Below are positions 60 to 41,670 of a stretch of 64,000 nt of DNA, in pieces (position 1 is the stretch's first letter; every line of letters starts with the position of its first letter). Below the pieces are notes generated by a model. It was given only the letters and a program-made list of their open reading frames with translations. It was not told the DNA's origin and made no database searches. Source of the stretch: an uncultured bacterium (lineage in GTDB: Bacteria > Acidobacteriota > Thermoanaerobaculia > Multivoradales > JAHZIX01); the NCBI GenBank assembly GCA_965368975.1, contig CBDUPA010000003.1, positions 288,001 to 352,000 on the forward strand, given 5' to 3'. A program made the translations under genes and the position numbers.

Positions 60-1700
60 TCAGAGTTTGATGTCCTTGCACTTGCCGTGGCTACCAGCGG
101 CCCAAAGCGTCTGGATCTCGGTGGCGCTCAGCTCGCGGGAGAAGAACTCGATCTCTTCCATGGTCGCGTCGAGGTAGCTGCCGTTGGCCTGGCGGCCGAT
201 GTAGACGGGAGCGCTGTTGTCCAGGTTTCCCTGGCGGCTCGACGGGTTGCGGCGCGTGCCGACCTCGACGCCATCGATGTACCAGCGGATGCCTTGCGGA
301 TCGTCGCGGTCGACGGTGACCGCGGCAAGGTGCCACTCGCCATCGGCGACGAAGCCGGCGAAGTTGGTGCCGCCGGCGGTGCCCGCGACGTAGTTGGTCC
401 AACCGCCGTCGGCCAGCTGCAAGGCGAGGTAGCCCTTGTAGAGGAAGAAGAGGTAGCCGTAGTACTGGCCCGCCGAACTCGACCGCTTGTCGACGATGGT
501 CGTGACGTGGCCGGTGTCGGTGGTCTTGATCCACAGATCGATGGAGAAGTCGCCGGTGCCGGCGTCGAGGGTCCATGGGAACGAGACCTGGACGTAGTCG
601 TTGACACCGTCGAAGTCGAGGGCATTCCCCACGACGCCGGTGGTCCAGGAAGCGCCGTAGACGGTGCCGTTGTTACCGTTGAAAATGTCCGGGGCCGAGT
701 TGCCCGAGCTGTGGTCGAAAGGCCACCAGCCTTGTAGACCACCGGGTGGGCGAATGCAGCTGTCGGCTGCGAAGACGCAGGTTGTCAGGCCGGTGGCGCC
801 GTTCGGCAGGCCTGATGGGCCGACGTTGACGAACTGGCCATTCGCGGGGTTCAGGGTCCGCAAGTCCTTTGTACCGTCGCTGGCACCGTCGAGCACATAG
901 TGCGTGCCGGAGGCTGGGTCGATGTCGTAGCCGGCGACGGTGCCGGTAGACGCCGAGGTGACGATGCTGCTGAGCACCGAGGCGTTGAGCGGGTTCACCT
1001 CGTAGAGCGTTGGTGGCCCGGTGACGGTGCGGCCGTCCAAAACGTACAGCCTGCCGCTGGCGTCGAAAGCGATACCGTCGGTGTCCGGTTGGCCTTCTCC
1101 CACATTCAAGTTCATGGTTCCCACCAACGTGGCGGCACCCGTCGCTTTGTCGAGGGTGTACAGCTTATTGATGGCGGCGTAGTAGAGGGTGCCGGTGGTC
1201 GGATCGACCGAGATGTCGCCCTCCAGGATCGATAGACTGGTATCGCCGATGGCGGTGTAGACACCCGAGGTCGGGTGGATGCTGTACAGGTGGTTGGGGT
1301 AAGGCCCGGCAGAGTACCTGTTGACCCCCCACAGCTTGCCGGCCGCGGCGTCCCACTCGATTCCGATCAGGGTACGTACGCTGAGTGGACGTGGGTTGCT
1401 GGCCGTGCCGATGAGGTTGTTGATGTCCCAGAGCGAGATCGGCTGCGACGAGTTTCCCAAGTCGTTGGCCCAAAGGCAGGTCTGTTCCAGGATCGGTTCC
1501 GGTTCGATGGTCAGGTCGCCGACGCGTACCTCGCGCTGCGCGGTCAAGTGCGATGGCAGCACCAGGACCCAGAAAGACAAGAGCGCGACGAGAGCGCCGA
1601 GCGGTGAGGTCCGCCGGCTTTGGCCGGGATCGGAAACGTGTGAGCTGTACTGCTTCAAGGTCTTCCTCCTTCTAGCGGTGATTCTGGAGATGGAGTACAC
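60..1700 (-). CDS. Secreted protein: N-terminal beta-propeller plus C-terminal LamG/concanavalin A-like domain
   Basis: 546 aa ORF. Hydrophobic signal-like segment (LGALVALLSFWVLVL). Blade-like repeats (GIEWDAAAGKLWGV, DISVDPTTGTLYY, GIAFDASGRLYVL, GYDIDPASGTHYVL). LamG signatures WWPFD, ALDFDGVNDYV, FSIDLWIK, DGEWHLAAVT, WYIDG, EEIEFFSRELSATEI. Exact start uncertain. Confidence 0.8.
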   Translation of the reverse strand: MYSISRITARRRKTLKQYSSHVSDPGQSRRTSPLGALVALLSFWVLVLPSHLTAQREVRVGDLTIEPEPILEQTCLWANDLGNSSQPISLWDINNLIGTASNPRPLSVRTLIGIEWDAAAGKLWGVNRYSAGPYPNHLYSIHPTSGVYTAIGDTSLSILEGDISVDPTTGTLYYAAINKLYTLDKATGAATLVGTMNLNVGEGQPDTDGIAFDASGRLYVLDGRTVTGPPTLYEVNPLNASVLSSIVTSASTGTVAGYDIDPASGTHYVLDGASDGTKDLRTLNPANGQFVNVGPSGLPNGATGLTTCVFAADSCIRPPGGLQGWWPFDHSSGNSAPDIFNGNNGTVYGASWTTGVVGNALDFDGVNDYVQVSFPWTLDAGTGDFSIDLWIKTTDTGHVTTIVDKRSSSAGQYYGYLFFLYKGYLALQLADGGWTNYVAGTAGGTNFAGFVADGEWHLAAVTVDRDDPQGIRWYIDGVEVGTRRNPSSRQGNLDNSAPVYIGRQANGSYLDATMEEIEFFSRELSATEIQTLWAAGSHGKCKDIKL

Positions 1701-1786
1701 TTGCCGGGAAAGTTCTCCGCCACGCCTGCCAGCGTCGTTCAGCGTCTTCCCTCTCCCAGCTCCAAATCGACAAGTAACGAGCGGTT

Positions 1787-3046
1787 TTGCAAACTGGACG
1801 GAACCAGCAGTCCGGAACGGTCCTCAGCGACTATCTCCGCGCCCTGGACCCGGCCGATGCCGCGCCCGCACAGGCACCTCCGGACGCTCTCTTCGACGGC
1901 TTCTGGCGTGCCTTCCGGGCCGTGGTGCGGCAGGAGGTTCGGCGCCGGGGTTTGGGCGGCGCGCCACCGCGCTTCCTGGGGATCGACGGTGACCACTGGG
2001 ACCGCCACACCCTGGAGGAGCTGACCACCGACTGCTACGTCTACCTGCTGGCCCGCCTGCGTGCCCTCAAGGCACAGCTGCGTGTCAAGCCCCATGTCGA
2101 TGGCCTGGTGCGTCTCAACGTGCGCCACTGCCTGCACGAGCGGCAGAAGGCCGGCGATCCGCTGGGCTACCGCGTCTTCGAGGTGTTCCACGAGGCGGTG
2201 CGACTGGCGTTGGAGCAGGGATGGTTGGCCGGGCCTGGGGAGGAGGATGTTTTGGACAATGACAGCTGGTTGACCGTGGGCCCTGGTAGCGAGACCAGCG
2301 CCGGTGATGCGGGCGGAGGATTGGGGGCCATGGCGGTGCTCGACCAGGTCCAATTGAGCCGGGACCAGTTGAGCCCCACCCTGCGCCGCTGCTGCGATGA
2401 GTTGCTTCCCGAGCTGATCATCGCCCGTGGCGGCCGGCGGCGGCGTGTTGTCGAGGCACTGAGCCGGCAGTTTGCGCGGCTCGGGGCCGCTGATGAGGCT
2501 GCGTCGACCCCTGGAACCGTGTCGCGCTTCCGCTTCAAGGATCTTCTCGATGCCGCCAAGAGCGCGGTGCGCTGGCGCTGGCGCGAGCTGTGGTTGAACG
2601 AGCAAGGGGACGGCGCACGCAGGGGGGCGGTCGACGAGGACGCGGCCGAGCCCGTCGAGCGTCGAGCCGACCACCGAGCCGACCACCGAGCCGACCGTCG
2701 AGCCGAGCGTCGAGCCGTCGCAGCCTGGCTACCGATCCTCCACCCACGCTCCGACTACGAGGAGCGGCAAGCTTTCCTGCGCCTGACGGACTGCGTCGAC
2801 CGCGGCGTGCGCGCCGGCAGTGCCAGTGATGCGAACGGTCACTTGAGTACCCTTTGGCAGTTCCTGCGGCGCCAGGCGCCGGATGTCGAAGTGCTACCGT
2901 CGCGCCGCAAGGTCGCCGCCTTCCTGGGGCTGCCCCGCTACCGCCTTCCGGAACTCTACGACCGGCTGGCCGAGCTGGTCGAGGGCTGCCGGCGTGCGCT
3001 GGCGGGGGATCTGGGCGAGGCAGAAGCAGGAGAGGAGCGGTCATGA
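1787..3046 (+). CDS. Hypothetical protein, divergent ECF sigma factor-like / HTH protein
   Basis: 419 aa ORF with coding-like codon bias. N-terminal segment LEELTTDCYVYLLARL...GLVRLNVRHCLHERQK loosely resembles sigma region 2. C-terminal SRRKVAAFLGLPRYRLPELYDRL resembles a region-4 HTH. The functional call is inference. Confidence 0.5.
   Translation: MQTGRNQQSGTVLSDYLRALDPADAAPAQAPPDALFDGFWRAFRAVVRQEVRRRGLGGAPPRFLGIDGDHWDRHTLEELTTDCYVYLLARLRALKAQLRVKPHVDGLVRLNVRHCLHERQKAGDPLGYRVFEVFHEAVRLALEQGWLAGPGEEDVLDNDSWLTVGPGSETSAGDAGGGLGAMAVLDQVQLSRDQLSPTLRRCCDELLPELIIARGGRRRRVVEALSRQFARLGAADEAASTPGTVSRFRFKDLLDAAKSAVRWRWRELWLNEQGDGARRGAVDEDAAEPVERRADHRADHRADRRAERRAVAAWLPILHPRSDYEERQAFLRLTDCVDRGVRAGSASDANGHLSTLWQFLRRQAPDVEVLPSRRKVAAFLGLPRYRLPELYDRLAELVEGCRRALAGDLGEAEAGEERS
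2657..2716 (+). repeat. Five imperfect 12-bp tandem repeats, in frame (ERRA-DHRA-DHRA-DRRA-ERRA)
   Basis: gagcgtcgagcc/gaccaccgagcc/gaccaccgagcc/gaccgtcgagcc/gagcgtcgagcc read directly. Confidence 0.9.
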
Positions 3047-4098
3047 CAGATCGAGGTAGGACGGTCCAAGTGCGGCAGGCGGCCATCGGCGACCTGTACG
3101 TCCTGGCCGAGCTGAACGCGACGACCCACGGTGGCGATCACGATGCCGAGAGTGTTGCAGGCGCGCTGGAGTGGCTGCTGCTGGAACAGCCAAGCGCGGA
3201 GCGCTGGCTGGTCGTCCCGGCCGACACGCTGCCGCTGACCGGTAGCGGCGACGTCGAGGTGCCACCGCAGGCCGCCACCGGACCGCTCGGCTTGCGCTGC
3301 CGCTTCGCCGTCGAGCTACCAGCTTCTGCACTGCGGCCGGAGTTGTACAACGGTACCGTCGAGGGCCGCTGGGTCGCGGCGGCGCGTGCGCGTGTGCAGG
3401 GGGACGCGAGCCTCGAGGCGGCCCCGCTGGCCGAGGAGACGGACCTCGATCCGGAGTACCTGGAATGGCAACGCGGCGTGCTGCGGCCTGCCCGCGCGGC
3501 TGTGGAAGCTCTGAGCCGTCCGGCTCCCGTCGTCGCGCTGCGCCGGGCTAGCTCACCTCAGAGTTCAGGCGCTGGGGCGTCCTGGCGGGCGCGCCGAGGA
3601 GAACTCTTGCGTCTGGCGGCGACGGCCGTTCTGGCTGCCGGTCTCGGCCTCTGGGTCGGTCTCTGGAATGGCCTCTGGAATGGCACGGATCCGCGGCCAG
3701 AGCAGGCCGAGGTCAACCTGCGCCTCGAATGGCTACTGCCGGGGCAGGACGAAGTACGCGGCAGCCAGCGCGAACTGCGCTTTACCGAGTCCGCGATGCC
3801 CGGTGAGCGCGTAACCTTCGTGCTCGAGACCTGGCGACCGTGGGATGGCGAGCGGTATCGGCTTGAACTGTGGCGCCAGGATACCAGTGACCGCGCGGCC
3901 TACTGGAGCAGCGATGAGCTCCGCTTGCAGGGAGCCTCCGAGATTCGCTTCAGTCTGCCGCGCGCCTGGCTGCCAGCCGGTCGCTACCAGCTGCGCCTGT
4001 TTGGTCTGGAGACGGGGGCCGATGCAGCAGAGATCGGTGCGATCCCGGTAGCGTTGGAAACCTACGACGTGCGGATCGAGGTCGGGGGCGATGAGTAG
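3043..4098 (+). CDS. Single-pass membrane protein, putative anti-sigma-like partner
   Basis: ATG at 3043 overlaps the upstream stop (ATGA) and is preceded by GAGGAG. Central TM segment LAATAVLAAGLGLWVGLW. C-terminal beta-rich domain (YRLELW, RFSLP, LPAGRYQLRLFG). Confidence 0.65.
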   Translation: MTDRGRTVQVRQAAIGDLYVLAELNATTHGGDHDAESVAGALEWLLLEQPSAERWLVVPADTLPLTGSGDVEVPPQAATGPLGLRCRFAVELPASALRPELYNGTVEGRWVAAARARVQGDASLEAAPLAEETDLDPEYLEWQRGVLRPARAAVEALSRPAPVVALRRASSPQSSGAGASWRARRGELLRLAATAVLAAGLGLWVGLWNGLWNGTDPRPEQAEVNLRLEWLLPGQDEVRGSQRELRFTESAMPGERVTFVLETWRPWDGERYRLELWRQDTSDRAAYWSSDELRLQGASEIRFSLPRAWLPAGRYQLRLFGLETGADAAEIGAIPVALETYDVRIEVGGDE

Positions 4099-4100
4099 GC

Positions 4101-7100
4101 TCAGGGCCAGTCGTGGATCGCACGTGGGTCGCCGCTGAGCCGGAAGCCGGCCCAGAAGTACGGTGGATAGTGCTCGGCCAGGGCCAACTGCGCCCGCCGC
4201 AACGCTTCGTCCTTGGGCAGGCCATCGAGGAGCCCCTGGTAGAGCTGCAGCATCAGCACCTCCGTCGCCACATCCGCCACCGTCCACAGTGAGGCCAGTA
4301 CGGCACGGGCTCCAGCGACTTCGAAAGCCCGCGTCATGCCGACGAGGCCTTCGCCGCGCACGTGCTCGCCGAGCGCGGTCTGGCAGGCGGACAGGACGAC
4401 CAGATCCGCGTCCAGCTGCAGCTCTTCGAACACTTCCCAGACCTGGAGACCACCGTTGTTCCGGTAGTCGAGTCGATCAGCTGGGTCCGGAGCCAGGAGC
4501 AAGGCCGACTCGGCGGGTAGCGCTGGCTCCAGCACGGCGTGTGTCGCTAGGTGCAGGACGCGCGCCGAGGGCGCCCAGGTGCGCAGCTGCCGCTCGCTGG
4601 CCTCGGAGCCGAGCAGCGTCTGTGCACCGGGCAGCAACGTGGCCAGAGCCTCGACTTCGGAAGTTGCTCCTGGGAGTGGGGGGAGGTTGGTCGAAGACCG
4701 CAGATCCGGTGCCAGGGCGACCAGAGGCACGCGTCGACCTTCGTCGACGTCTTCAGCCTCGGAGCCGGAGCGGGTGGAGAGCTGCCGATGTTCTTGGTAG
4801 CTGGTCGCGGAGAGCGCGAAGTGCAGAGGTTTCCACTGCACCAAGGTCTCGGCAACCCTCTCCGTCGGTAGCTTCTTCGGCAGCGGAAGAGCCGCGAAGG
4901 GGAGCAAGTGGAGAGGACCGTCGGGAAGGAGCAAGAGCCGCTGAGCGGGCTCTAAGCTGGGTGCCGCGGCTGCCAGCAAGCGGTCGAACAGCCGATGGCC
5001 AAAGGCCTGAGCCGCGGCCAGGCGACGAGCCCCTCGTTCAGAGGTCTCGATCGCCAGCGCTTCCTGCAGTAGCTCTCGATAGCGTGCCACCTCGCGTGCC
5101 AGCTCCGCTTCGCCGATCCCGAGCCGAAAGACGGAGATCTCCTGCCGCGACTGCAGGAGGAACAGGAACGACTCGTGCTCTCCGACACTGAAGCTGAGCA
5201 GGGCTGTTCCCGCTTCCAGCTGTGCCAGGACCTCGCTGCTGGTCAGGGGCTGGCGCGCTAGCAGAGCGGGACCGGCTTCGCGTTCACCCAGCATTTCCAG
5301 CAGACTGCGCCCCAGCGAGCGCTCGTGGACATCGAACGCTGCTTCCGGCTCACCCAGCTCGATCAGCAGGCGCGTCCGTGCACGGTACATTTCCACGAAG
5401 TCGGCGCGAAAGCGGGCGCGCAAGCGGTGCGAGCCACCGAGGTGGTCGACCTGCCCCTCCAACGCCTGTAGACCTCGCCGTAAGGACTCGGCAGCCTCGG
5501 CACGGGCACCGCGCGCCAGCATCAAGCGGGCCAAGGCGTCGTACAGCTCAGCCGTCTGTGCGGTGGCTGGTTCCAGGCGCAGCTGCAGCTCCAGGGCTCG
5601 CCGGAAAGCTGCTTCCGCCAGCACAGGCTGGCCGGCGGCGGCGGCAGCGGTGCCGATCTGGAAATGGCTGAACACCACATCGAACCCCACGGCATCCTGG
5701 CGAGACGAGTCCACGGTCCCAGACTGTTCCCGTAAGCGCAACGCCTGCGTGTGCAGCCGCAAGGCCGTCTCCGGATCGCCGCCTTGCAGTGCCAGCAGTG
5801 CCAGGTTGTCGACCGCGACAGCTCGATCGAGAGGAGTTTCCTGAGACACGGCGTCGCGGTGGCGCCGGTACCAGGCGTGTGCCCCTTCGAGGTCGCCGTC
5901 CATGAGGGCCACGTCGCCGAGATTGAGCAGCGTCGTCGCGGACTCGGCCGGCTCGGTGGCGTGTGCCTGCTTGTGCTCCAAGGCTTCGAGCAGCAGCTCA
6001 CGCGCTCGCGGTAGGTCGCCGCGCTGGTACGCCACGCGTCCAAGGTTGTTGAGGGTCGAGCCGAGTTGGACATCGAAAGCAGAATCACGATCCACCAGGC
6101 GCCGCTCCAGTTCCAGGGCCCGCTGCAGGTAGTCCCAGGCCAGGCTGTAGTGCCCGCGGCTGATCGCCAGGCTGCTCAGGTTGTTGAAGGTACCCGCCAC
6201 GCCGGGACTTTCCGGTGCCAATTCCAGTCGTAGGCGAAGTGACGCGAGCAGATGGGCTTCCGCCTCGAGCGGAGCACCGCTCCGGATGGCGACATACGCC
6301 AGGCCATTGAGGGTGTTGGCGAGCGGCAGGCTGTGCGGCGCTCGCGCTTCCTGGATACGATGCGCGCGGCTGTAAGCGTCGCGGGCCGGTGCGGTCTCGC
6401 CACGCTGCATCGAGATGTGACCGAGGCTGTACCAGCGCAGGGCGACCAGCAGCGGCGTTTCGTTCTCGTCGAGTTCGGCCAGGTCCGCCTCGAAGGTCGT
6501 GCGGGCACCTTGCAGGTCTCCAAGACTGTATTGTGCTCTCGCCAGAGCATCGCGCAAGCAAGAGCGGGCCCGGGCCGCAGCGGCAGTGCCGACGAGCTGT
6601 TGTAGCCGCGTGATTCGCCTGTCCGGAGACAGCAAGCGCACACCTTGCCACTGTAGCCACAGCGCAGCATTCTCGTCGTGCACGCGGCCCGCCAAGCGTT
6701 GCCACGAGGAGGCCTCGGCATTGTTCGGGGGCAGTTCTGTCGCCGGCAGTTCGCTGGCTGGTACAGAGGGCCGCACCTTGACGCCCCAGGCTCCGGGGGC
6801 CACCGCCAGCGCGAGAGGCACCGTGCGCCCGTCCGTCTCGGTTCTTTCGCCGTGCAGAATTAGAGGGCCGCGCGCTGCCTGCTCGCTCTCCAGCCAGCAC
6901 CAGTCGAAGGGGCCCTTGAGATCTTCGGACACGGGCTCCGCGCCTGTAGCGCGAGACCAGCCGGTGAGCATGTCGCCGCGCTGGAGCCCGGCTGCCGCCG
7001 GTGCCGAGCCTGCCGGCACCTCCGTCACGATCACGCCCGGCAGCACGGTCAGTTGTGGCGGTACCTCGTCCGTCGCGGCAGGAGCACAAGCCCAGCCGAG

Positions 7101-7145
7101 GCACGTAGCGAGCGCGACGCCTGCGAGCGACCCACGAGGTTTCAT
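4101..7145 (-). CDS. PDZ-TPR-CHAT (caspase-like) protease, probable lipoprotein
   Basis: Signal peptide with lipobox-like LGWAC. PDZ-like GVIVTEVPAGSAPAAAGLQRGD. Multiple TPRs (ANTLNGLA, AGTFNNLS, STLNNLG, TTLLNLG). CHAT motifs LLPDGPLHLLPFAAL, VLHLATHA (catalytic His), VVLSACQT (catalytic Cys), ASLWTV, PYFWAGF. Confidence 0.92.
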   Translation of the reverse strand: MKPRGSLAGVALATCLGWACAPAATDEVPPQLTVLPGVIVTEVPAGSAPAAAGLQRGDMLTGWSRATGAEPVSEDLKGPFDWCWLESEQAARGPLILHGERTETDGRTVPLALAVAPGAWGVKVRPSVPASELPATELPPNNAEASSWQRLAGRVHDENAALWLQWQGVRLLSPDRRITRLQQLVGTAAAARARSCLRDALARAQYSLGDLQGARTTFEADLAELDENETPLLVALRWYSLGHISMQRGETAPARDAYSRAHRIQEARAPHSLPLANTLNGLAYVAIRSGAPLEAEAHLLASLRLRLELAPESPGVAGTFNNLSSLAISRGHYSLAWDYLQRALELERRLVDRDSAFDVQLGSTLNNLGRVAYQRGDLPRARELLLEALEHKQAHATEPAESATTLLNLGDVALMDGDLEGAHAWYRRHRDAVSQETPLDRAVAVDNLALLALQGGDPETALRLHTQALRLREQSGTVDSSRQDAVGFDVVFSHFQIGTAAAAAGQPVLAEAAFRRALELQLRLEPATAQTAELYDALARLMLARGARAEAAESLRRGLQALEGQVDHLGGSHRLRARFRADFVEMYRARTRLLIELGEPEAAFDVHERSLGRSLLEMLGEREAGPALLARQPLTSSEVLAQLEAGTALLSFSVGEHESFLFLLQSRQEISVFRLGIGEAELAREVARYRELLQEALAIETSERGARRLAAAQAFGHRLFDRLLAAAAPSLEPAQRLLLLPDGPLHLLPFAALPLPKKLPTERVAETLVQWKPLHFALSATSYQEHRQLSTRSGSEAEDVDEGRRVPLVALAPDLRSSTNLPPLPGATSEVEALATLLPGAQTLLGSEASERQLRTWAPSARVLHLATHAVLEPALPAESALLLAPDPADRLDYRNNGGLQVWEVFEELQLDADLVVLSACQTALGEHVRGEGLVGMTRAFEVAGARAVLASLWTVADVATEVLMLQLYQGLLDGLPKDEALRRAQLALAEHYPPYFWAGFRLSGDPRAIHDWP

Positions 7146-7559: not shown

Positions 7560-9056
7560 CTATTTCTTCTTCTTCCGCTTCGGCAGATACAGATCCGTCA
7601 AGGTCCCCGCGAACGCCTCCGCCGACATCGCGACGGTTTCGGACAGCGTCGGATGCGGGTGCACGGTCAGGCCGATGTCCTCGGCTTCGCAGTCCATCTC
7701 GATCGCCAGCGCCACCTCGGCGATCAGATCACCGGCATTCGGTCCGACGATACCGCCGCCGAGGACGCGCTTCGTCTCGGGATCGAAGAGCAGCTTGGTG
7801 CTGCCTTCGCTGCGGCCCAGCGCCAGCGATCTGCCGTTGGCCGCCCATGGGAAGGCCGCTCGCTCGTACTTCGTGCCGTCCGCCTTCGCCTGCGTTTCCG
7901 TCAGGCCGACCCAGGCGACTTCCGGGTCGGTGTAGGCGACGCTGGGGATGACACGGGCATCGAAGGCGGCGGGTTCGCCGGCGATGACTTCGGCGGCGGT
8001 CTTGCCTTCGTGCACGGCCTTGTGGGCGAGCATCGGTTGGCCGGTGAGGTCGCCGATGGCGAAGATGTTCGAGACGTTGGTGCGCAGCTGGCGGTCGACG
8101 GGAACGAAGCCGCGGTCGGTGACGTCGAGACTGGCGGCTTCGGCGTTCAGCTGGTCTCCGTTGGGCCGGCGGCCGACGGCGGAGAGGACTTTGTCGAAGG
8201 TTGCGGTCTTGGGGACTTTCGTATCGCCGTCCGGGCCTTCGAAGGTGACCTTCAAGCCCTGTTTCTGTTGCTCGACAGCAGTGACCTTGGTCTGCAGGTA
8301 GATGTTTTCGTACCGTGCGGCGATGCGCTTGTGTAGGGGGCGTACGAGGTCTTTGTCGCAGCCAGGGATCAGGCTGTCCATCAGTTCGACGACGGTGATC
8401 TTGGAGCCCAGTGCGTGGTAGACCGTTGCCATCTCGAGGCCGATGATGCCGCCGCCGAGGATCAGCAGGCGCTTGGGCACGTCGGTGAGTTCGAGGGCAC
8501 TCGTCGAGTCGAGGACGCGCGGGTCGTCGGGTAGGAAGGGCAGGCGCACGACCCTGGAGCCGGTAGCGAGGATGGCGGCGTCGAAGGCCACGGTCTTCGT
8601 CGAACCCTCGTGCTCGACTTCCAGCGTGTACTTCGACGTCAGGCGGCCGGTGCCCTGGACGACGGTCACTTTGCGGGCCTTGCTCATCGACGCGATACCG
8701 CCGGTCAGCTTGCTGACCACGCTGTCCTTCCAGCCGCGCAGGGCGTCGAGGTCGATCTTGGGCTTGCCGAAGCGGATGCCGTGCTCGGCGAAGTCGGCGG
8801 CTTCGTCGATTACCTTGGCGGCGTGCAGCAGCGCCTTGGACGGGATACAACCGACGTTGAGGCAGACGCCGCCAAGGTTGGGGTAGCGCTCGACGAGCAC
8901 GACCGTCTTGCCCAGGTCCGCGGCGCGGAAAGCGGCACTGTAGCCGCCGGGGCCGGAGCCGAGGACGAGTACTTCGGCGTGCAGGTCAGCGGCGTCGCGT
9001 ACGTTCTTAGGGGCGGGTTCGATAGCCGGTGGAGTCGCGTTCGAGAGTTCGCTCAT
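7560..9056 (-). CDS. lpdA: Dihydrolipoamide dehydrogenase (E3)
   Basis: GSGPGGY FAD motif, GGVCLNVGCIPSK redox disulfide, GGGIIGLE, HPHPTLSE. Start placed at the ATG of MSELS; the GTG at 9080 is an alternative. Confidence 0.96.
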   Translation of the reverse strand: MSELSNATPPAIEPAPKNVRDAADLHAEVLVLGSGPGGYSAAFRAADLGKTVVLVERYPNLGGVCLNVGCIPSKALLHAAKVIDEAADFAEHGIRFGKPKIDLDALRGWKDSVVSKLTGGIASMSKARKVTVVQGTGRLTSKYTLEVEHEGSTKTVAFDAAILATGSRVVRLPFLPDDPRVLDSTSALELTDVPKRLLILGGGIIGLEMATVYHALGSKITVVELMDSLIPGCDKDLVRPLHKRIAARYENIYLQTKVTAVEQQKQGLKVTFEGPDGDTKVPKTATFDKVLSAVGRRPNGDQLNAEAASLDVTDRGFVPVDRQLRTNVSNIFAIGDLTGQPMLAHKAVHEGKTAAEVIAGEPAAFDARVIPSVAYTDPEVAWVGLTETQAKADGTKYERAAFPWAANGRSLALGRSEGSTKLLFDPETKRVLGGGIVGPNAGDLIAEVALAIEMDCEAEDIGLTVHPHPTLSETVAMSAEAFAGTLTDLYLPKRKKKK

Positions 9057-9076
9057 GGTGCCTCGTCTCCCGGGGT

Positions 9077-10414
9077 TCACAGCAACAGCCGGCGCATGTC
9101 GGTCAGCAGGCTGCTCAGGTAGGTGATGAAGCGGGCACCAGCGGCGCCGTCGATCACTCGGTGATCGTAGGACAGAGCCAAGGGCATCATCAGGCGTGGC
9201 ACGAACTCACCCTTGTCGGTATCCCAGATCGGTTTCATGGCGTTGCGCGCGACGCCCAGGATGGCGACCTCGGGGGCGTTGACCAGCGGCGTGAAGTTGG
9301 TGCCACCGATGCCGCCGAGGCTGGAGATGGAGAAGCAGCCGCCCTGCAGGTCGCCGGGGGTGAGCTTCTTGTCTCGCGCCTTGACGCTGGCGGCGACGAC
9401 TTCTTCGGCTAGCTGGTAGAGGCCCTTCTGGTCGACGTCGCGGATCACCGGCACCACCAGGCCGTCAGGGGTATCGACCGCGACGCCGATGTGCACGTAC
9501 TTCTTGACGATCAGGTTCTCACCGTCAGGAGCCAGTGAGCTGTTGAAGTCCGGATACTCCTTGAGCGCGGCGGCACAGGCCTTGAGCAGGAAGGCGAGGG
9601 GCGTCAGCTTGTAACCCTTCTGCTTGGCCTCGGCGGCGTGGCCCTTGCGGAAGGCTTCCAGCTCGGTGACGTCGGCCTCGTCGTATTGGGTGACCAGGGG
9701 CACGTGCAGCCAGGCGCGGTGCAGGTGGGTCGCGGAGACCTTGCGGATGCGACTGAGCTTCTTGCTCTCGACTTCACCGAATTTGGAGAAGTCGATCGCG
9801 GGCATGGGCGGGATCCCCGCGCCAGCACTGGTGCCGCCGGTTTGCAGCTGGGCCAGCGTTGCCTTGACGTAGTTCTGCACGTCCTCGCGCAGGATGCGTC
9901 CCTTGCGCCCGCTGCCCTGGACGTCGCCGAGGCCGACGCCGAGTTCGCGCGCGAAGCGGCGGATCGCCGGGCTGGCGTGGGCGTCGCGGTGCGCCTCGTC
10001 GTCGATCGAGCGATCGGAGGAAGCCTGGGCAGGTGTGCTCGGGGGGGCAGCGGAGGCCCCGCTCGCGGGCTCCTGGGCGGCTGCCGTGTCGTCGCTGGTC
10101 TCATCTTTGCGTGCGGCTTCAGCTTGGGGCGCCTCGGCCTTGGCCTTGGCCTTGGCCGGGCTCGTACCGTCACCGGCCGCGGTTTCGACCAGCGCGATAA
10201 CCGAGCCCGTCTGGACTTTGTCGCCGACCTTTACCTTCACTTCGGTGATCTTGCCTGCTTCGCTGGAGGGGACCTCCATTGAGGCTTTGTCGCTTTCCAG
10301 CGCCAACAGGGAGTCGTCGACCGCGACCTCGTCGCCGACGGCGACCAGCACTTCGACCACGTCGACTTCGTCGCTGCCGATGTCTGGAACCTTGATTTCT
10401 CGAATCTCAGCCAC
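9077..10414 (-). CDS. aceF: Dihydrolipoamide acetyltransferase (E2), single lipoyl domain
   Basis: Lipoyl motif LESDKASMEVP, E3-binding HASPAIRRFARELG, catalytic YDHRVIDG. Confidence 0.96.
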   Translation of the reverse strand: MAEIREIKVPDIGSDEVDVVEVLVAVGDEVAVDDSLLALESDKASMEVPSSEAGKITEVKVKVGDKVQTGSVIALVETAAGDGTSPAKAKAKAEAPQAEAARKDETSDDTAAAQEPASGASAAPPSTPAQASSDRSIDDEAHRDAHASPAIRRFARELGVGLGDVQGSGRKGRILREDVQNYVKATLAQLQTGGTSAGAGIPPMPAIDFSKFGEVESKKLSRIRKVSATHLHRAWLHVPLVTQYDEADVTELEAFRKGHAAEAKQKGYKLTPLAFLLKACAAALKEYPDFNSSLAPDGENLIVKKYVHIGVAVDTPDGLVVPVIRDVDQKGLYQLAEEVVAASVKARDKKLTPGDLQGGCFSISSLGGIGGTNFTPLVNAPEVAILGVARNAMKPIWDTDKGEFVPRLMMPLALSYDHRVIDGAAGARFITYLSSLLTDMRRLLL

Positions 10415-10433
10415 TCGTCTGCCTCCACTCTGC

Positions 10434-13205
10434 TCAGGTCAACATGGGATTGGGACGATCCGGGTCGATGTCCAGGTCTTTCATTGCTTGGGTGACGTCG
10501 GCGGCGTTCAGCTGGCCGTCGTCGGCCAGGGCCTTGAGCGCGGCCTGCACGACGAAGCGACGGTCGACCTCGAAGAAGTCGCGCAGCGCCTCGCGCGTAT
10601 CACTACGGCCGAAGCCGTCGGTGCCCAGGGTGACGTAGCGCGTCGGTACCCAGGGGCGGATCTGTTCGGCGAACAGGCGTTGGTAGTCGGTGGAGGCGAT
10701 CACCGGACCCGGTGTCTCGGCCAACTGGGCGCCGAGCTGCTGCTCCACCCAGGTCTGGCGCGGCTCCTGCTCTGGATGCAGGCGGTTCCAGCGGTCGACG
10801 TCCTCGCCGTCGCGCCGCAGCTGGTTGAAGCTGGTGGCGCTCCACACGTCGGCTAGAACGCCATAGCGTTCCTCCAGGATCTCGGCGGCCGCCTGCACCT
10901 CGCGCAGGATCGTACCGCTGCCGAGGAGCTGGACGCGCGGGGCCTTCCGGGTCTTGATGCTCGGGCTCTTGCCCTTCTTGCTACCCTTGGCCGGCGCCGG
11001 CGTGGCGGTGCGCAGACGGTAGAGGCCGCGCAGGATGCCTTCCTCGGCACCCTCGGGCATCGCTGGCTGCGGGTAGTTCTCGTTCATCACCGTCAGGTAG
11101 TAGAAGCCGTCTTCCTGCTCGACCAGCATGCGGCGCAGGCCGTCCAGCAGGATGACCGCGACCTCGTAGGCGAAGGTGGGGTCATAGGCGCGGCAGGCGG
11201 GGTAGGTGGCGGCCAGCAGATGGCTATGTCCGTCCTCGTGCTGCAGCCCCTCGCCGTTCAGCGTCGTGCGGCCGGCCGTGGCGCCGAGCAAGAAGCCGCG
11301 GGCACGCTGGTCGCCGGCCAGCCAGGCCAGGTCGCCTATGCGCTGGAAGCCGAACATCGAGTAGTAGATGTAGAAGGGAATCATCGGCACGCCGTGGTTG
11401 GCGTAGGAGGTCGCGGCGGTGAGCCAGGAAGTGAATGCGCCGGCCTCGTTGATGCCTTCCTGCAGTAGCTGGCCGTCCTGGCTCTCTTTGTAGAACATCA
11501 GCTGGTCGGCGTCGACCGGCGTGTACTTCTGACCTTCCGGCGCATAGATGCCGATCTGACGGAACAGCCCTTCCATGCCGAAGGTGCGCGCTTCATCAGC
11601 GACGATCGGCACCAGGTGTTCCTTGAGCCGTTTGTCGCGCGCCAGGATGGTCAGCACACGCACGAAAGCCATGGTGGTCGACATCTCGCGGTCTTCGCCG
11701 GTGCCGTCGAGCAGGACCTGGAAGGTGTCTAGCTCGGGAACGGGCAGCTGCGGTGCCTGGTGGACGCGCGTCGGCAGGTAGCCGCCCAGCTCTTTGCGCC
11801 GGGCGTGGAGGTACTGCATCTCCGGGCTGTCGGCGTCCGGCACGAAGAACTCGAGATCGCGCACGTGCTCGCGCGTCAGCTGTAGCTGGAAGCGTTCGCG
11901 GAAGGCCTCGAGTTCCTCTTCCTTCATTTTCTTTTGCTGGTGGCTGATGTTGAGGCCTTCAGCGGCGGTCCCGAGGCCGAAACCCTTGACCGTGTGGGCC
12001 AGGATCACTGTGGGTTGGCCGCTGCCTCGTTCGCCGTGCCCGGCGCCGTGCTCAATGGCGGCCCGGTAGGCGGCGTAGATCTTACGTCGGTCGTGGCCGC
12101 CGGGAATCAGCTGCTGCTTGAGTTCCTCGTTGCTCAGGTGGGCGACAAGCTGGCGCAACTCGGGGGTGTTGAACAGGTGCTCGCGCATGTAGGCCCCATC
12201 CTTGGCCGAGACGTTCTGGTACTCGCCGTCGACGATGGCGTTGAGCCGCTCGAGCAACTGACCGCTGCTGTCGCGCGCCAGCAGGTCGTCCCAGGCGGAA
12301 CTCCATACGACCTTGAGCACGTTCCAGCCAGCGCCGCGGAAGATGCCTTCCATCTCCTGCAAGATCTTGCCGTTGCCGCGCACCGGGCCGTCGAGTCGCT
12401 GCAGGTTGCAGTTGAGCACGAAGACCAGGTTGTCGAGCTTCTCGTTGGCCGCCACGTTGAGGCAGCCGAGGGTTTCCGGCTCACTGCTTTCGCCATCGCC
12501 GATGAAGCACCAGACGCGACGCTGGGTGTTGTGCTCGGAGGCGAGCAGGCCGCGGTTCTGGAGGTACTTGAGGAAGCGGGCCTGGTAAATGGCGGCGAGG
12601 GGGCCGAGGCCCATCGAGACGGTGGCGAATTGCCAGAAGTCGGGCATCAGCCAGGGGTGCGGGTAGGACGACAGGCCGCTCGGCGTGTCGGCACCGGCAC
12701 CGGCTACCTCGCGCCGGAAGGCGAGCATCTGGTCGCGCGTCACGCGGCCTTCGAGGAAGGCGCGCGAGTAGACGCCGGGCGAGGAGTGCCCTTGCAGGTA
12801 GACGAGGTCGCCGCGATGCTCGTCGGTAGGAGCCTTCCAGAAGTGGTTGAAGCCCATCTCGAACAAGTGCGCGACGGAGGCATAGCTGGCGATGTGACCG
12901 CCGACGCCGCTGTAGTCACGGTTGGCGCGCACGACAGCGACGATGGCGTTCCAGCGCAGGATGGCCAGCAGCCGCTCTTCTAGCTCACCGTCACCGGGTG
13001 GCTGCGGCTCGCGGTCGGCAGCGATGGTGTTGATGTAGGGCGTGCCGATGCCTGTGGATGGCGCCGCGCCGATGCGTTCGGCTTGCCGGCGCAGGGCTTC
13101 GAGCAGAAAACGTGCCCGCTCCGGGCCGTCGTGCTCGAGCACCGAGGCCAAGGAGTCGAGCCATTCTTGGGTCTCGACGGGATCGATATCGTGAATCTGG
13201 CTCAT
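10434..13205 (-). CDS. aceE: Pyruvate dehydrogenase E1, homodimeric type
   Basis: DIDPVETQEWLDSL N-terminus, GGHIASYAS, GDGE TPP motif, NCNLQRLDGPVRGN, TTLNGEGLQH, GTDGFGRSD. Confidence 0.97.
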   Translation of the reverse strand: MSQIHDIDPVETQEWLDSLASVLEHDGPERARFLLEALRRQAERIGAAPSTGIGTPYINTIAADREPQPPGDGELEERLLAILRWNAIVAVVRANRDYSGVGGHIASYASVAHLFEMGFNHFWKAPTDEHRGDLVYLQGHSSPGVYSRAFLEGRVTRDQMLAFRREVAGAGADTPSGLSSYPHPWLMPDFWQFATVSMGLGPLAAIYQARFLKYLQNRGLLASEHNTQRRVWCFIGDGESSEPETLGCLNVAANEKLDNLVFVLNCNLQRLDGPVRGNGKILQEMEGIFRGAGWNVLKVVWSSAWDDLLARDSSGQLLERLNAIVDGEYQNVSAKDGAYMREHLFNTPELRQLVAHLSNEELKQQLIPGGHDRRKIYAAYRAAIEHGAGHGERGSGQPTVILAHTVKGFGLGTAAEGLNISHQQKKMKEEELEAFRERFQLQLTREHVRDLEFFVPDADSPEMQYLHARRKELGGYLPTRVHQAPQLPVPELDTFQVLLDGTGEDREMSTTMAFVRVLTILARDKRLKEHLVPIVADEARTFGMEGLFRQIGIYAPEGQKYTPVDADQLMFYKESQDGQLLQEGINEAGAFTSWLTAATSYANHGVPMIPFYIYYSMFGFQRIGDLAWLAGDQRARGFLLGATAGRTTLNGEGLQHEDGHSHLLAATYPACRAYDPTFAYEVAVILLDGLRRMLVEQEDGFYYLTVMNENYPQPAMPEGAEEGILRGLYRLRTATPAPAKGSKKGKSPSIKTRKAPRVQLLGSGTILREVQAAAEILEERYGVLADVWSATSFNQLRRDGEDVDRWNRLHPEQEPRQTWVEQQLGAQLAETPGPVIASTDYQRLFAEQIRPWVPTRYVTLGTDGFGRSDTREALRDFFEVDRRFVVQAALKALADDGQLNAADVTQAMKDLDIDPDRPNPMLT

Positions 13206-35441: not shown

Positions 35442-36536
35442 TCACGGTGTCACCACCTCGGTGGCCGGTCGGTTCATGCTCCAGTTGAACCAGAAGGTGT
35501 CGACGCCTGGCAAGCGCTGCACGGTCGATGCGCCCTCGCCGACGAAGCTTGCGGAGGCGGGGTCGAGTCGGGAACCCGACGCGCGGTGCACCCAGGTGCC
35601 GCTGTGCGCTTCGAAGGCGTCGCCTTCGGCCGGCTTCGGTGCCACGAAGGCGGCTGAGCTGCGGTAGATCGCGGCGCCTGCGGGGCGCTGGAGCAGGATC
35701 TGGTGGTCTCCCAGCTGCAACAATACCCCCGATCCGGTGAAGTGCTCGGAGGCTACAGCGTACGGAGTGCCCTCGAGTTCGAAGGCGAAGATGTGGGCTT
35801 TGGCTGACAGGCGAGTGTCCGCCAGCTGGCCATCTCGGAACACTCGATCGGAGGACAGGTAGTTGTCATAGGGATTGCTGTCCGCGTGCTCCTGCCCGCC
35901 GACGGAGAGCACGAGCGTGTGGGGGTAGCGACCCTTCCAGTCGGCCCACTGTGCCTTCTCGCCAATCGTGAGCTCGTCGAGCAGAGTGCCATCGAGATCG
36001 CCGGCGATGGCTTCCCCGTTGAGGATCGGCCAGTAGCTGTCGGTCTCGCGGTCCTGCATCACCAGCGTGGCGTGGATGAGACCGCCGGAGGGTTCGAAGT
36101 GAAGAGTCTTGCCCGCGTAGTTGCGGCCGTACACGACGGCCGTGTTGGCGAGCGGTCACCAGACTGCCGCGATCGGCAGCTCTCCCAGGCGATCGTTGAC
36201 TACTTCGTGCTGGTTCAGCAGGTTCAACGAGTAGGCGCGCGCCTCTCCGTCGAGCGCGATACCGAGGACCCAGGCATCCTCCGGCACGTCGGCTTCGTCA
36301 GCCGTCACGAAGTCGGGAGCGTGGATCGCCGGAATGCCGCCACGCGGTAGCAGCTGCTGGAAGCTGTCCGGCAGATCCGGATGCACTTCGGCACCGCGCA
36401 TTCCTGGCTCAGGAGGCTTGTCACGCACACCTTCGGTCGCGGCGCTCAGAGCACTCGGGCCGAGTGTCAGCAGCAGAGCTGGGAGCAGGGATCGCAGGAC
36501 GTGGCCGAGCGACACTGGGGTGTTTCGTCTGGGCAT
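35442..36536 (-). CDS. DUF3179-family exported protein, probable selenoprotein (in-frame TGA at 36156-36158)
   Basis: The 126 aa and 230 aa ORFs are in the same frame and joined by TGG TGA CCG CTC GCC (W-U-P-L-A). Family motifs GIPAI, ARAYSL..L..HEVVND, LVMQDRETDSYW, W..WK..YP.T and FWFNW span both halves. Confidence 0.85.
36124..36142 (-). promoter_or_regulatory. Candidate bacterial SECIS hairpin
   Basis: mRNA CGGCCGU-CGUGU-ACGGCCG: perfect 7-bp stem and 5-nt loop with G at position 2. The loop begins 20 nt after the UGA. Confidence 0.65.
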
Positions 36537-39402: not shown

Positions 39403-39903
39403 ATGCGTCATTCTCTGCAGGGAAGCGCCGCCTGGCTATTGTGTGCCACCGCGGTCCTCCTCCTCTGTGCTGTCCCGGCGATCGCCGCGGACACCACTTC
39501 TGAAGCAGTTCCCACACCCAACAGTCATGTATCCGAGACCGCGGTCGAAGCCGCGCAGATCCCGGTGCTCGACCTGAGCGGGTTCCTGGCCTTCATCGAC
39601 CCCGAGACCGGTGAGTTCCGGGCGCCGAACGAGCAGGAAGCCGCCGCGCTGGCGCAGGCTCTGCGCTTGCCGCAGCAGGCCCTACAGGCTCGTTCGCTAC
39701 AGGCCCCGACCGTCGAGTCCGTTACGCTCGACAACGGTGTCGCTGCCGAAAGTGTGCTGCTCGATCTGAGCAGCGTCAGCTTCAGCGTCGCCCGTGTGCA
39801 AGCCGATGGCAGCGTTGCGTTCGACTGTGGCATCGACCACGATCACAGCGCGCACACGGCCACCGCGACAGACACCAACACCGCCCAGCCGGGTGAAATG
39901 TGA
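39403..39903 (+). CDS. Small secreted protein with IDPETGExRAP motif and C-terminal CGxDHDH (copy 1)
   Basis: TAAGGAG RBS, signal peptide ending AIA, FIDPETGEFRAP, FDCGIDHDHS. Paralog at 41811. Confidence 0.85.
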   Translation: MRHSLQGSAAWLLCATAVLLLCAVPAIAADTTSEAVPTPNSHVSETAVEAAQIPVLDLSGFLAFIDPETGEFRAPNEQEAAALAQALRLPQQALQARSLQAPTVESVTLDNGVAAESVLLDLSSVSFSVARVQADGSVAFDCGIDHDHSAHTATATDTNTAQPGEM

Positions 39904-39920
39904 GACCGGGAGCCAAGACC

Positions 39921-41615
39921 ATGAAAAAGCACTTCGCTCTCGCGCTCCCTCTCGCCCTCCTCGCTCTGCTGACGGTGCCGGCCACGCCGGCTGCCGCTAG
40001 CGCGACGATCTTCGTCAACAACCTGGACGCCCCGGGCGTCGGTTTCAATGATCCCACGCCGGTGGCGCCGATCGGCGGCAACCCCGGTACCACCCTCGGT
40101 GAGCAGCGGCTCAACGTCTTCCAGTTCGCGGCAGACGCTTGGGGTTCGGTGCTGGACAGCGACGCCACGATCACCGTGGGTGCTGTCTTCGTGCCGCTGG
40201 GTTGCAGCCCGTTCGCCGCGACCCTCGGCTCGGCCGGTACCTTGCAGGTATTCTCGTTCAACTCGGCCTTCCAGCCGAACATCATTCCCAACGTTTGGTA
40301 CCACGTGGCTCTGGTCAACGCACTGATCGGTTTCGACGCCACGCCGGGTCCGCCGGACCCGTTCCTGGGGTTCGGTAACGACGAGATCTTCGCTTTCTTC
40401 AACAGCGCGATCGACAACAACCCCAACTGCCTGCCGGGTAACTGGTACTACGGCCTGGACCACGACAACGAGCTGATCGACGTCGACCTGCTGAGCGTCG
40501 TCATGCACGAGTTCGGCCACGGACTGGGCTTCGCCAACTTCACCAACGAGAGCACCGGTGCACCGCTGGGTGGCCGCACGGACATCTTCTCGGTGTACAC
40601 CTACGACAAGACCCTGGGCAAGACCTGGGCGCAGATGACCAACGCCGAGCGCCAGTTCTCGGCTGTCAACACCGGTAACGTGGTGTGGGTCGGCCCGAAC
40701 GTCACGGCCAACGCCTCGCGCTATCTTGCGCCGGGCACGGAAGTTGTGAGCAGCGTCGGCACCTTCGAGGCGCAGGGCGCCTTCTTCGGTCCGACTCTGG
40801 ACTTGACCGGCGTCAGTGGCAGCATCGAGCTGGCCGATGACGGCATCGGTGTGGCGACGGATGCTTGCGAGCCGCTGAACAACAGCTTCGCCGGCAACAT
40901 CGCGCTGGTCGACCGTGGCGGCTGCTCCTTCGTCCTGAAGGTGCAGAACGCCGAGGCGGCGGGTGCCAGTGGTGTCATCGTGGCCAACAATCAGCCGACC
41001 GGCCTGCCGCCGATGGGTGGTTCGACGGCGGTAGGTATTCCTTCCGTCGGCATCTCGTTCGACGACGGCAGTCTGGTCAAGGCCAACCTGCCGGGTGTCA
41101 GCGCGACGCTGCGTCAGAGCACCACCGGTCGCACGGGTACCGACATCAACGGCCTGGTGCGGTTGTACGCACCGCCGAGCGTCGCTTCTGGCTCGTCGCT
41201 GTCGCACTGGGATACCTCGGCGACGCCGAACCTGCTGATGGAGCCCTTCATCAGTGACGACCTGACGCCGGCTGTCGATGTCGACCTGACCCGCCACCTG
41301 TTCCAGGACCTCGGTTGGGAGCTGTGTGACAGCGACGGTGACGGCGTGCCGAACGCGGACGACGCCTGCCCGGCTTCTGATCTGGGTGCCACGGTCGTGA
41401 TCGACGGCTGCGACAGCGGCGTCGGCAACCTGCTGTTCGCCGATGGCTGCACGATCACCGACCTGGTGCTCGGCTGTGCCGACGGTGCCGGCAACCATGG
41501 GCAGTTCGTCAGCTGCGCGACCCAGACCGGCAATGGCCTGGTCGCCGCCGGTGTGATCAGCGGTTCCGACAAGGGCGCGATCACCAGTTGCGCTGCGCAG
41601 TCGAGCCTCCCCTGA
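39921..41615 (+). CDS. Secreted PA-domain zinc metallopeptidase (copy 1)
   Basis: Signal peptide, HEFGHGLGF, PA domain (DACEPL, IALVDRGGCSFVLKVQNAEAAGA), distal SHWD and LLMEP, DSDGDGVPNADDACP Ca-binding-like repeat, Cys-rich NHGQFVSC tail. Confidence 0.9.
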   Translation: MKKHFALALPLALLALLTVPATPAAASATIFVNNLDAPGVGFNDPTPVAPIGGNPGTTLGEQRLNVFQFAADAWGSVLDSDATITVGAVFVPLGCSPFAATLGSAGTLQVFSFNSAFQPNIIPNVWYHVALVNALIGFDATPGPPDPFLGFGNDEIFAFFNSAIDNNPNCLPGNWYYGLDHDNELIDVDLLSVVMHEFGHGLGFANFTNESTGAPLGGRTDIFSVYTYDKTLGKTWAQMTNAERQFSAVNTGNVVWVGPNVTANASRYLAPGTEVVSSVGTFEAQGAFFGPTLDLTGVSGSIELADDGIGVATDACEPLNNSFAGNIALVDRGGCSFVLKVQNAEAAGASGVIVANNQPTGLPPMGGSTAVGIPSVGISFDDGSLVKANLPGVSATLRQSTTGRTGTDINGLVRLYAPPSVASGSSLSHWDTSATPNLLMEPFISDDLTPAVDVDLTRHLFQDLGWELCDSDGDGVPNADDACPASDLGATVVIDGCDSGVGNLLFADGCTITDLVLGCADGAGNHGQFVSCATQTGNGLVAAGVISGSDKGAITSCAAQSSLP

Positions 41616-41670
41616 GCCTTCCATCCAGCGGCTAGTCGACCCTGACTTGGGGTAGACTGCCGATGAAGTG

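Follow-up and report, generated by a model that had tools for sequence, protein, structure and literature searches.

A conserved three-gene unit of Acidobacteriota combines an exported TPR-CHAT protein with a candidate membrane tether and a putative cytoplasmic regulator

In the RseA/DegS/RseP system that controls sigma E of Escherichia coli, a periplasmic protease with a PDZ sensor cuts a single-pass membrane tether and frees a cytoplasmic factor. The closest known system to the one described here is DdvS/DdvA of Myxococcus xanthus, which consists of DdvS, a sigma factor of the extracytoplasmic function (ECF) type, and a transmembrane anti-sigma factor, DdvA, with a periplasmic TPR-CHAT part. 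The report on this pair proposes that the caspase-like CHAT domain of DdvA acts as a self-cleaving site-1 protease ahead of RseP-type cleavage, and states that this proposed self-cleavage awaits the activating signal (PMC11506125). The focus of this article is a three-gene unit in a stretch of 64,000 nucleotides from an uncultured bacterium of the Thermoanaerobaculia (Acidobacteriota; contig CBDUPA010000003.1, positions 288,001 to 352,000), referred to below as the window. The unit encodes an exported TPR-CHAT protein, a single-pass membrane protein (the partner) and a cytoplasmic protein of 419 amino acids labelled sigL, a label by which no sigma identity is implied. Full-text literature searches, with subscription journals and supplements outside their scope, found no papers on this module, which appears to be new in its split between protease and tether, while its signalling logic would be that known from DdvA/DdvS.

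According to the account of DdvA, both systems place a TPR-CHAT region with a His/Cys dyad outside the cytoplasmic membrane and couple it to a single-pass membrane protein as the actual or putative holder of a cytoplasmic regulator. The differences are nevertheless considerable. Here, the TPR-CHAT part is a separate exported protein with a signal peptide only, and the tether is encoded by a gene of its own; this tether combines a small immunoglobulin (Ig)-like outer domain with a beta-rich cytoplasmic domain, whereas the anti-sigma domain of DdvA is described as zinc-binding and built of three helices. The protein that would be held, with its roughly 400 residues and its unnamed family, is no recognisable ECF sigma factor, and no ECF model matches in the window, which also contains no island of CBASS (cyclic-oligonucleotide-based antiphage signalling system) or CRISPR (clustered regularly interspaced short palindromic repeats) type. 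Thus the module falls outside a DdvA-type definition on all three counts, having neither the fused polypeptide nor the zinc anti-sigma domain nor an adjacent ECF gene.

Further described systems share single features with the unit. The group ECF54 occurs in a context of carboxypeptidase, subtilase and CHAT proteins, and a review proposes proteolytic control for it and reports no anti-sigma factor (PMC8999054). In both cases a CHAT protein is the conserved neighbour of a gene for an actual or putative transcription factor and proteolytic control is proposed, but the ECF54 factor is, in that account, a recognisable ECF without an anti-sigma factor, whereas here a membrane tether accompanies a regulator that matches no sigma model. 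The same source lists kinase-linked ECF sigma factors, namely ECF43 and five further groups (PMC8999054). The resemblance lies in the loci related to the window, in which sigL adjoins membrane serine/threonine (Ser/Thr) kinases with outer TPR or PD40 repeats and in which pairs of a PF07638 ECF and a kinase often adjoin the module; the window itself, however, holds neither kinase nor ECF, and none of the models tested identifies sigL as an ECF. With RseA/DegS the module would share the logic of outer cut, tether removal and factor release, although the protease is of CHAT rather than HtrA serine type, neither tether nor factor is related to its counterpart by sequence, and the PDZ match does not reach its threshold. 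Finally, the type III-E Craspase combines Cas7-11 with Csx29, a protease of TPR-CHAT type that cleaves Csx30 (PMC10028731). Like the present unit it ties a TPR-CHAT protease to the control of a transcription factor, but it is cytoplasmic and RNA-guided, whereas the protein described here is exported and no Cas family was found by Pfam among the 47 open reading frames (ORFs) of the window that were scanned, in agreement with the earlier note on this DNA, which had reported the window to be free of CRISPR genes.

The conservation of the unit was examined in 79 loci (L001-L079), fetched by sigL from a scan of one genome per species and derived nearly all from Thermoanaerobaculia or other Acidobacteriota; 38 of them, with at least 8 kb on both flanks, are called full loci. 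Neighbours were counted with hidden Markov models (HMMs) built from the loci and with tblastn searches using the window proteins. A partner gene lies just downstream of sigL, within 1.5 kb, in 62 of the 79 loci and 34 of the 38 full loci, and a CHAT gene lies within 6 kb in 47 of the 79 (27 of the 38 full ones). The earlier note had asked for such a neighbourhood survey, and the co-occurrence of the homologs with CHAT genes is confirmed by it. If Ser/Thr kinases are counted alongside CHAT genes, one or the other is found near sigL in 64/79 loci and 37/38 full loci, and no other neighbour family recurs in more than nine. The position of the CHAT gene varies: 33 of the 47 tblastn matches stand downstream on the same strand, 6 have the convergent arrangement of the window and 8 lie upstream. 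A single locus, L010, holds the best or near-best match of all three window proteins (CHAT domain 1e-73, partner 3e-26, sigL 1e-60), which indicates that the three genes travel together. The bond between sigL and partner is frequently closer still, with a full partner in the same polypeptide as sigL in 46 of 191 family members, in-frame fusions in L011, L028, L045 and L076, and a start/stop overlap of 4 nt in 22 of the 61 loci listed. The window shows the same overlap, an ATGA at 3043-3046 in which the TGA stop of sigL overlaps the ATG of the partner. This gene arrangement is far beyond chance, and the three genes form a conserved unit. In L006 and L051, two sigL-partner-CHAT modules stand within about 10 kb on one contig, one of them convergent as in the window.

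The TPR-CHAT protein (1014 residues; 4101-7145, minus strand) was assigned by the Pfam CHAT and TPR families. Its CHAT peptidase domain, residues 713-1006 (4128-5009, minus strand), matches PF12770 with an E-value of 1.3e-59 and 202.5 bits over the whole length of the model (profile positions 1-289 of 289). The catalytic residues assigned by alignment of CHAT domains, His869 (codon 4539-4541, minus strand) and Cys921 (codon 4383-4385, minus strand), are invariant in 40 of 40 aligned domains, comprising that of the window and 39 homologs from related loci; the intact His/Cys dyad seen in the earlier note is thereby upheld, and the protease is, judging by its sequence, catalytically intact across the homologs. 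The TPR region covers residues ~235-565 (5451-6443, minus strand; Pfam TPR_12, TPR_1, TPR_2 and TPR_10), and a phmmer search of the whole protein against the Protein Data Bank (PDB) returned TPR proteins only, of the kinesin-light-chain type.

A predicted signal peptide occupies residues 1-22 (7080-7145, minus strand). Lipoproteins carry the lipobox [LVI][ASTVI][GAS]C at the end of this peptide. The earlier note had called the protein a lipoprotein, of which the signal-peptide-like N-terminus stands, but the two cysteine contexts, LATC and GWAC, do not fit the usual lipobox; several CHAT homologs have boxes of the L-A-G-C type, and the closest subtype has ends resembling signal peptidase I sites. 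By a crude hydrophobicity test, an N-terminal hydrophobic segment is present in 34 of the 41 homologous ORFs encoding at least 1000 residues, so that export is a trait of the family, and we regard the window protein as exported on the strength of this predicted signal. Residues 35-61 (6963-7043, minus strand) resemble part of a PDZ domain, as the same note had proposed. The match (E 0.0046; 27 residues, profile positions 24-50 of 81) recurs weakly at the same place in 6 of the 9 N-termini scanned, those of the window and of five of eight homologs, but its 17.8 bits remain below the Pfam cut-off of 23.2.

The partner (351 residues; 3043-4098, plus strand, nested in a longer frame at 2854-4098) has no Pfam, NCBIfam or PADLOC match; a word search gave one relative only, and its family alignment consists of 32 sequences built from the loci. 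In an AlphaFold2 model with a predicted local distance difference test (pLDDT) score of 79.6, the N-terminal cytoplasmic domain, residues 1-170 (3043-3552, plus strand), is beta-rich, with strands at 17-105 and helices at 108-158, and the alignment shows D61, R85, C86, G104, W142 and A150 as conserved. The transmembrane segment, at about residues 188-210 (3604-3672, plus strand), is a hydrophobic stretch following Arg residues within the model helix 180-213; the positive-inside rule points to an N-in topology. Residues 226-341 (3718-4065, plus strand) are modelled as an extracytoplasmic Ig-like beta-sandwich of seven strands. In the PDB, the model is matched best by sandwiches of phage baseplates and of Ig-V-like type (Foldseek, E 1e-5 to 1e-3); these matches presumably belong to the outer domain, the match table being without query ranges. 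As modelled, the partner would share with class I anti-sigma factors the single-pass N-in layout and the gene coupling to a held protein.

The gene for sigL (1787-3046, plus strand, from the ORF list) encodes a cytoplasmic, mostly helical protein, modelled in three blocks (pLDDT 82.2). No match was obtained in Pfam, NCBIfam or PADLOC, and a word search gave 48 homologs, all unnamed or hypothetical, the named ones coming from Acidobacteriota. The family is nevertheless large: a profile search of 1.84 billion representatives yielded 845 clusters at E <= 1e-3, of which 522 remain at E <= 1e-30, the clusters being formed at 50% identity and 845 being a minimum. Its most conserved stretch is a C-terminal segment resembling a helix-turn-helix (HTH), residues ~369-400 (2891-2986, plus strand), with the core IPRxRLP, invariant S372, L380 and R384, and nearly invariant R374, P383 and R386. 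Weak HTH matches in Pfam occur in 5 of 44 family members. A protein atlas gave no more than leads: the nearest clusters are unnamed, one cluster has HTH_psq in 24% of its members, and a phage cluster (score 0.88) has Sigma70_r2 in 19%. We consider sigL to be probably a sequence-specific DNA-binding regulator of some kind. The window copy also has a low-complexity insertion of Arg/Ala/Asp/His repeats at residues ~285-305 (~2640-2700) which its homologs do not have and which lies in a low-confidence part of the model.

A bipartite DNA motif, TAAC-N16/17-TGG[CA][GTC]G, lies within 300 nt upstream of sigL in 40 of the 79 loci. With this regular expression, the background is 0.0045 per 300 nt, giving an enrichment of about 110-fold, and 37 matches were found elsewhere in 2.46 Mb. 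The two ends of the motif are constant and the spacer varies by subfamily. Matches fall mainly into four classes of position: 41 of 86 lie upstream of sigL in sense orientation and 11 at its 3' end on the opposite strand, while 9 are in sense orientation upstream of a neighbouring kinase gene and 9 mark the 3' end of a kinase gene in antisense orientation, amounting to 70 of 86, with the other 16 elsewhere and none upstream of an ECF gene. Copies in sense and antisense orientation can bracket the genes of a module, for example at 9846 in L009, 9873 in L018, 11094 (minus strand) in L012, and 9864 (minus strand) together with 6901 (plus strand) in L062. The motif may be a promoter or an operator, and sigL is the obvious candidate for its reader, although the choice of the loci was itself made by sigL. 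No covariation of motif variants with the HTH-like segment was evident beyond subfamily signatures.

The window carries the variant TAACGA-N14-TGGACG (1775-1800, plus strand), which points to sigL. Its TGGACG box is common to the window, L001 and L045, and it is absent from lists allowing at most two mismatches because it differs from TAACGG-N14-TGGCGG at three positions. A second match of the regular expression in the window, at 14191, is within chance expectation, and a scan for sigma-70 promoters found none at 1500-2000. Two other explanations of the motif were considered and rejected. An insertion sequence with terminal inverted repeats around sigL is not compatible with copies that are only 30-45% identical as proteins and with a translationally coupled partner, and a sigma-54 promoter would have its GG and GC elements in another order and at another spacing.

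From the gene unit, the fusions and translational coupling, the export signals with the catalytic dyad, the topology of the partner, and the motif and where it lies, we infer a module that acts across the envelope: sigL would bind the partner, the CHAT protein would cleave the partner, later proteolysis would follow, and sigL would bind DNA and make a set of genes respond. At rest, the cytoplasmic N-domain of the partner would keep sigL at the inner membrane, and the small Ig-like domain of the partner would face the periplasm. A signal would be sensed via the TPR part, and perhaps the PDZ-like part, of the exported protein, upon which the caspase-like domain would cut the outer domain or the linker of the partner. 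Removal of the truncated tether would follow, presumably along the lines of classical regulated intramembrane proteolysis, through a site-2 protease and proteases of the cytoplasm. The freed sigL, most likely a sequence-specific DNA-binding regulator and maybe a very divergent sigma-type factor, would then act at the motif of the TAAC-N16/17-TGGCGG type in front of its own operon. We put this forward tentatively, as a quite plausible account that falls somewhat short of being probable. Trans-envelope signalling had already been suggested in the earlier note, and the conserved unit, the exported intact protease, the partner topology and the fusions and coupling speak for it as the best reading; the sigma identity of sigL and the LamG gene as output, which belonged to the same suggestion, do not find such support.

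Several observations weigh against this reading. The constancy of sigL across the loci is a matter of construction, as sigL was used to fetch them. The adjacency of the genes for protease and partner would also fit CHAT as a regulated product. Class I anti-sigma factors (of the anti-sigma domain and zinc-binding anti-sigma domain types, ASD and ZAS) have an N-terminal helical domain, often with the zinc-binding signature H-x3-C-x2-C. The partner has no match to an anti-sigma family, its N-domain is beta-rich, its conserved residues form no H-x3-C-x2-C, and no anti-sigma factor stands among the Foldseek matches of its model listed to rank 50. The membrane partner of the earlier note is borne out in its single transmembrane segment, its cytoplasmic N-domain and its outer C-domain, here modelled as Ig-like, but has no anti-sigma domain. 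The reading of the motif as a promoter is awkward in the window, because the one canonical in-frame start that sigL has, TTG 1787, sits between the two boxes of the motif and the leader of about 100 nt seen in L001 and L045 is missing.

The nature of sigL itself raises further points of this kind, and that it is a sigma factor seems to us possible but doubtful. The sigma2/sigma4 domains, which the earlier note had set as the test for the 419-residue protein, did not appear as significant matches in Pfam, NCBIfam, hmmsearch, hhalign against shuffled controls or Foldseek. In Pfam, Sigma70_r2 is found in 0 of 44 family members and Sigma70_r4 in one (E 0.05), and the family profile matches PDB sequences at best with E 0.1, to unrelated proteins (hmmsearch). 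In hhalign, an alignment of 191 sigL sequences scores 23.9 (P 0.021) against 29 PF07638 ECF sigma factors taken from the sigL-related loci, and eight column-shuffled controls reach 23.4. Comparison with an alignment of FliA gives 19.6 (P 0.099), a value exceeded by one shuffle in eight; this alignment is shallow, since every sequence listed by its word search shares 81% or more of its residues with the query. The Foldseek search with the sigL model gave no hit at E <= 1e-3 in the PDB (best 0.27) or in BFVD (best 0.084), all hits having E >= 0.08 and a template modelling (TM) score below 0.3. None of these searches relates sigL significantly to a DNA-binding or sigma family. Weak hints that it is sigma-like come from below the thresholds, where sigma factors are the family that recurs. 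About 13 of the PDB matches listed to rank 50, including the first five, are RNA polymerase-sigma entries, the matched chains being probably the sigma subunits to judge by their length, and six named sigma factors stand among the 50 best in BFVD. Similarly, sigma2 and region 4.2 of the ECF profile are where the two top-scoring hhalign segments lie, in the same linear order, and the HTH-like segment aligns in register with region 4.2 of PF07638 (P 0.058, below threshold). The bipartite motif upstream of sigL likewise hints at a sigma-like protein, being compatible with promoter recognition by it.

Also to be set against the proposed module is the frequent presence of genuine ECF sigma factors. 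In 26 of the 38 full loci, and in 39 of all 79, a PF07638 ECF gene is found no more than 8 kb away; it often either diverges directly from sigL or immediately follows the partner or CHAT gene. A kinase gene stands within the same distance in 24 of the 38 full loci. Loci without a tblastn match to CHAT have, by Pfam, membrane Ser/Thr kinases with TPR or PD40 repeats, often together with a PF07638 ECF. The composition of the module given in the earlier note holds for the window but misses this ECF and/or kinase component of many related loci. On one metagenome-assembled contig, L076, a single frame without a membrane segment (8585-10777, plus strand) runs through sigL, the partner N-domain and an ECF of PF07638 type, and a kinase-TPR gene comes after it. 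These data bear on a different reading, in which sigL and the partner form a large unconventional membrane anti-sigma factor or co-regulator of a kinase-linked PF07638 ECF, the CHAT protein or kinase is the sensor that inactivates them, and the output runs via the ECF, which in this genome would lie outside the window. The neighbourhood of ECF genes and the L076 frame favour it, as does the general anti-sigma layout of a fused sigL-partner protein, with its cytoplasmic domain, transmembrane helix and outer domain. We nevertheless consider it unlikely. The L076 fusion is a single case, and an ECF is found in none of the 191 family members examined; 12 of the 38 full loci have no ECF, and neither an ECF nor a kinase HMM matches anywhere in the 64-kb window, even at E <= 10. 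In addition, the motif never stands upstream of ECF genes, the HTH-like segment of sigL is strongly conserved, and both sigL and the partner are unlike known anti-sigma domains. A whole clade of sigL beside kinases, moreover, is without a tether and mostly without an ECF. A complex prediction for sigL, partner N-domain (residues 1-170) and ECF of L018, with the ECF as scored chain, returned "no answer" and a score of 0.00 twice, while the controls were not folded, and speaks neither for nor against binding.

That clade also bears on the proposed tether. In a careful maximum-likelihood tree of 80 sigL sequences, the label partner-less and kinase-adjoining needs two changes; in a quick tree, all ten copies with this label fall into one clade of 11 rows (SH-aLRT, the Shimodaira-Hasegawa-like approximate likelihood ratio test, 99). 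In the careful tree, the copies with partner and CHAT (46 rows) spread over the rest. The window sigL forms a long branch with L001 and L010. A tether is present in 46 of the 48 sigL rows with CHAT and absent in the ten rows beside kinases. In each of the 11 kinases checked, a single hydrophobic segment separates the kinase domain from the repeats, which places the repeats outside the cell and the catalytic domain inside. The tether therefore follows the location of the catalytic domain, being present with an outside protease and absent with an inside kinase. This pattern fits the module with a tether-cutting protease, but it comprises few independent events, which counts against it. The partner-less copies (L044, L046, L049, L055, L056, L060, L062, L068, L069 and L077) are divergent from PD40-propeller membrane kinases, and the motif is directed there at the kinase gene and not at sigL. 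Two of them, L068 (11077-12680, plus strand) and L069 (11144-12747, plus strand), encode kinase-TPR proteins with an N-terminal region of ~180 residues that matches the ECF profile and, at E <= 1e-6, no Pfam sigma model; this region may be an ECF-like domain fused to the kinase.

The remaining readings concern the role of the protease and of the module as a whole. The partner may itself be the sensor, via its Ig-like domain, with sigL as its regulator and the TPR-CHAT protein as a regulated exported protease that acts on other envelope or foreign proteins. The gene order is in keeping with this, as CHAT is mostly the last gene of a co-directional sigL-partner-CHAT row (33/47) preceded by the conserved motif, and contact with or cleavage of the partner is part of the interpretation only. 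In other loci, however, membrane Ser/Thr kinases take the place of CHAT, and these are signalling enzymes rather than effectors; the convergent and upstream CHAT genes (14/47, including the window) do not share one transcript with sigL, and in the closest known system the TPR-CHAT part is on the anti-sigma factor itself, DdvA (PMC11506125). We regard this reading as quite unlikely. Even less credence, to the point of being highly improbable, is given to a conflict or defence system, or to a window copy that is decaying and no longer works. CHAT proteases do occur in defence, with Craspase and the DdvA regulon mentioned in the same article (PMC11506125), and the window sigL has its TTG start inside the motif only, no usual leader and a long branch in the tree. 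Yet PADLOC gives a generic TPR model for the CHAT protein only, and none for the partner, sigL or the divergent neighbour, the surroundings are housekeeping genes, all three ORFs of the module are intact, with a third-position guanine-cytosine (GC) content of 0.76-0.80 in the two scored, and the catalytic residues are in place.

If the module works through a cut tether, it would represent a second setting, and a far more widespread one, for the control of gene expression by an extracytoplasmic CHAT protease through a membrane tether. It would also be a natural split version of DdvA, in which the separation of protease and tether makes site-1 cleavage testable in trans. The unit ties the sigL and tether families to the kinase-coupled ECF systems of Acidobacteriota, which are poorly understood, and it draws attention to two sizeable families that lack a family model, sigL and the tether with its beta-rich cytoplasmic domain. 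The motif is a candidate DNA target for binding or transcription assays. A wider proposal, which at present we hold to be somewhat unlikely, is that sigL founds a large unnamed sigma-like or HTH family of at least 845 clusters, mainly in Thermoanaerobaculia, which reads TAACGG-N14/15-TGGCGG bracketing the regulated gene and receives two interchangeable inputs, a tether-cutting CHAT protease or direct kinases.

The layout of the locus is as the earlier note had placed it, with four ORFs at 60-1700 (minus strand), 1787-3046 (plus), 3043-4098 (plus) and 4101-7145 (minus). Its ATGA coupling, the 2 nt between the partner stop (ending at 4098) and the convergent CHAT stop (starting at 4101), the divergent gap of 86 bp at 1701-1786 and the neighbouring pyruvate dehydrogenase (PDH) operon, with lpd, aceF and aceE at 7560-13205 (minus strand), are likewise all borne out. 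The gene across the divergent gap from sigL (60-1700, minus strand) encodes a protein of 546 residues of secreted type, with a hydrophobic N-terminal segment and Pfam matches to DUF4394 (E 1.3e-8) and Laminin_G_3 (E 1.8e-20). This is the gene described as propeller-LamG in the earlier note. A relative occurs in only one of the 79 loci (L066; tblastn), several kb off and on the other strand, and the gene is no conserved member of the module. Its proposed role as the divergent output is accordingly not upheld, since the conserved upstream motif also points away from it, towards sigL.

The block, taken in the earlier note to be inserted, has a GC content of 0.64-0.71 and in this respect is not distinct from its flanks. 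Rfam at gathering thresholds gave no match in the window, and Pfam found no sigma factor, kinase or Cas gene among its 40 further ORFs, which are ordinary chromosomal genes such as those for heme synthesis, tsaBDE, dnaE and a Mrp antiporter. Two adjacent ORFs at 35442-36134 and 36156-36536 (minus strand) match the C-terminal (profile 74-291) and N-terminal (2-61) parts of DUF3179, respectively, and may be a split or frameshifted gene. At 39403-44170 (plus strand), a pair consisting of a small protein without Pfam match (166 and 203 residues) and a PA-domain protein (571 and 602 residues) is duplicated in tandem.

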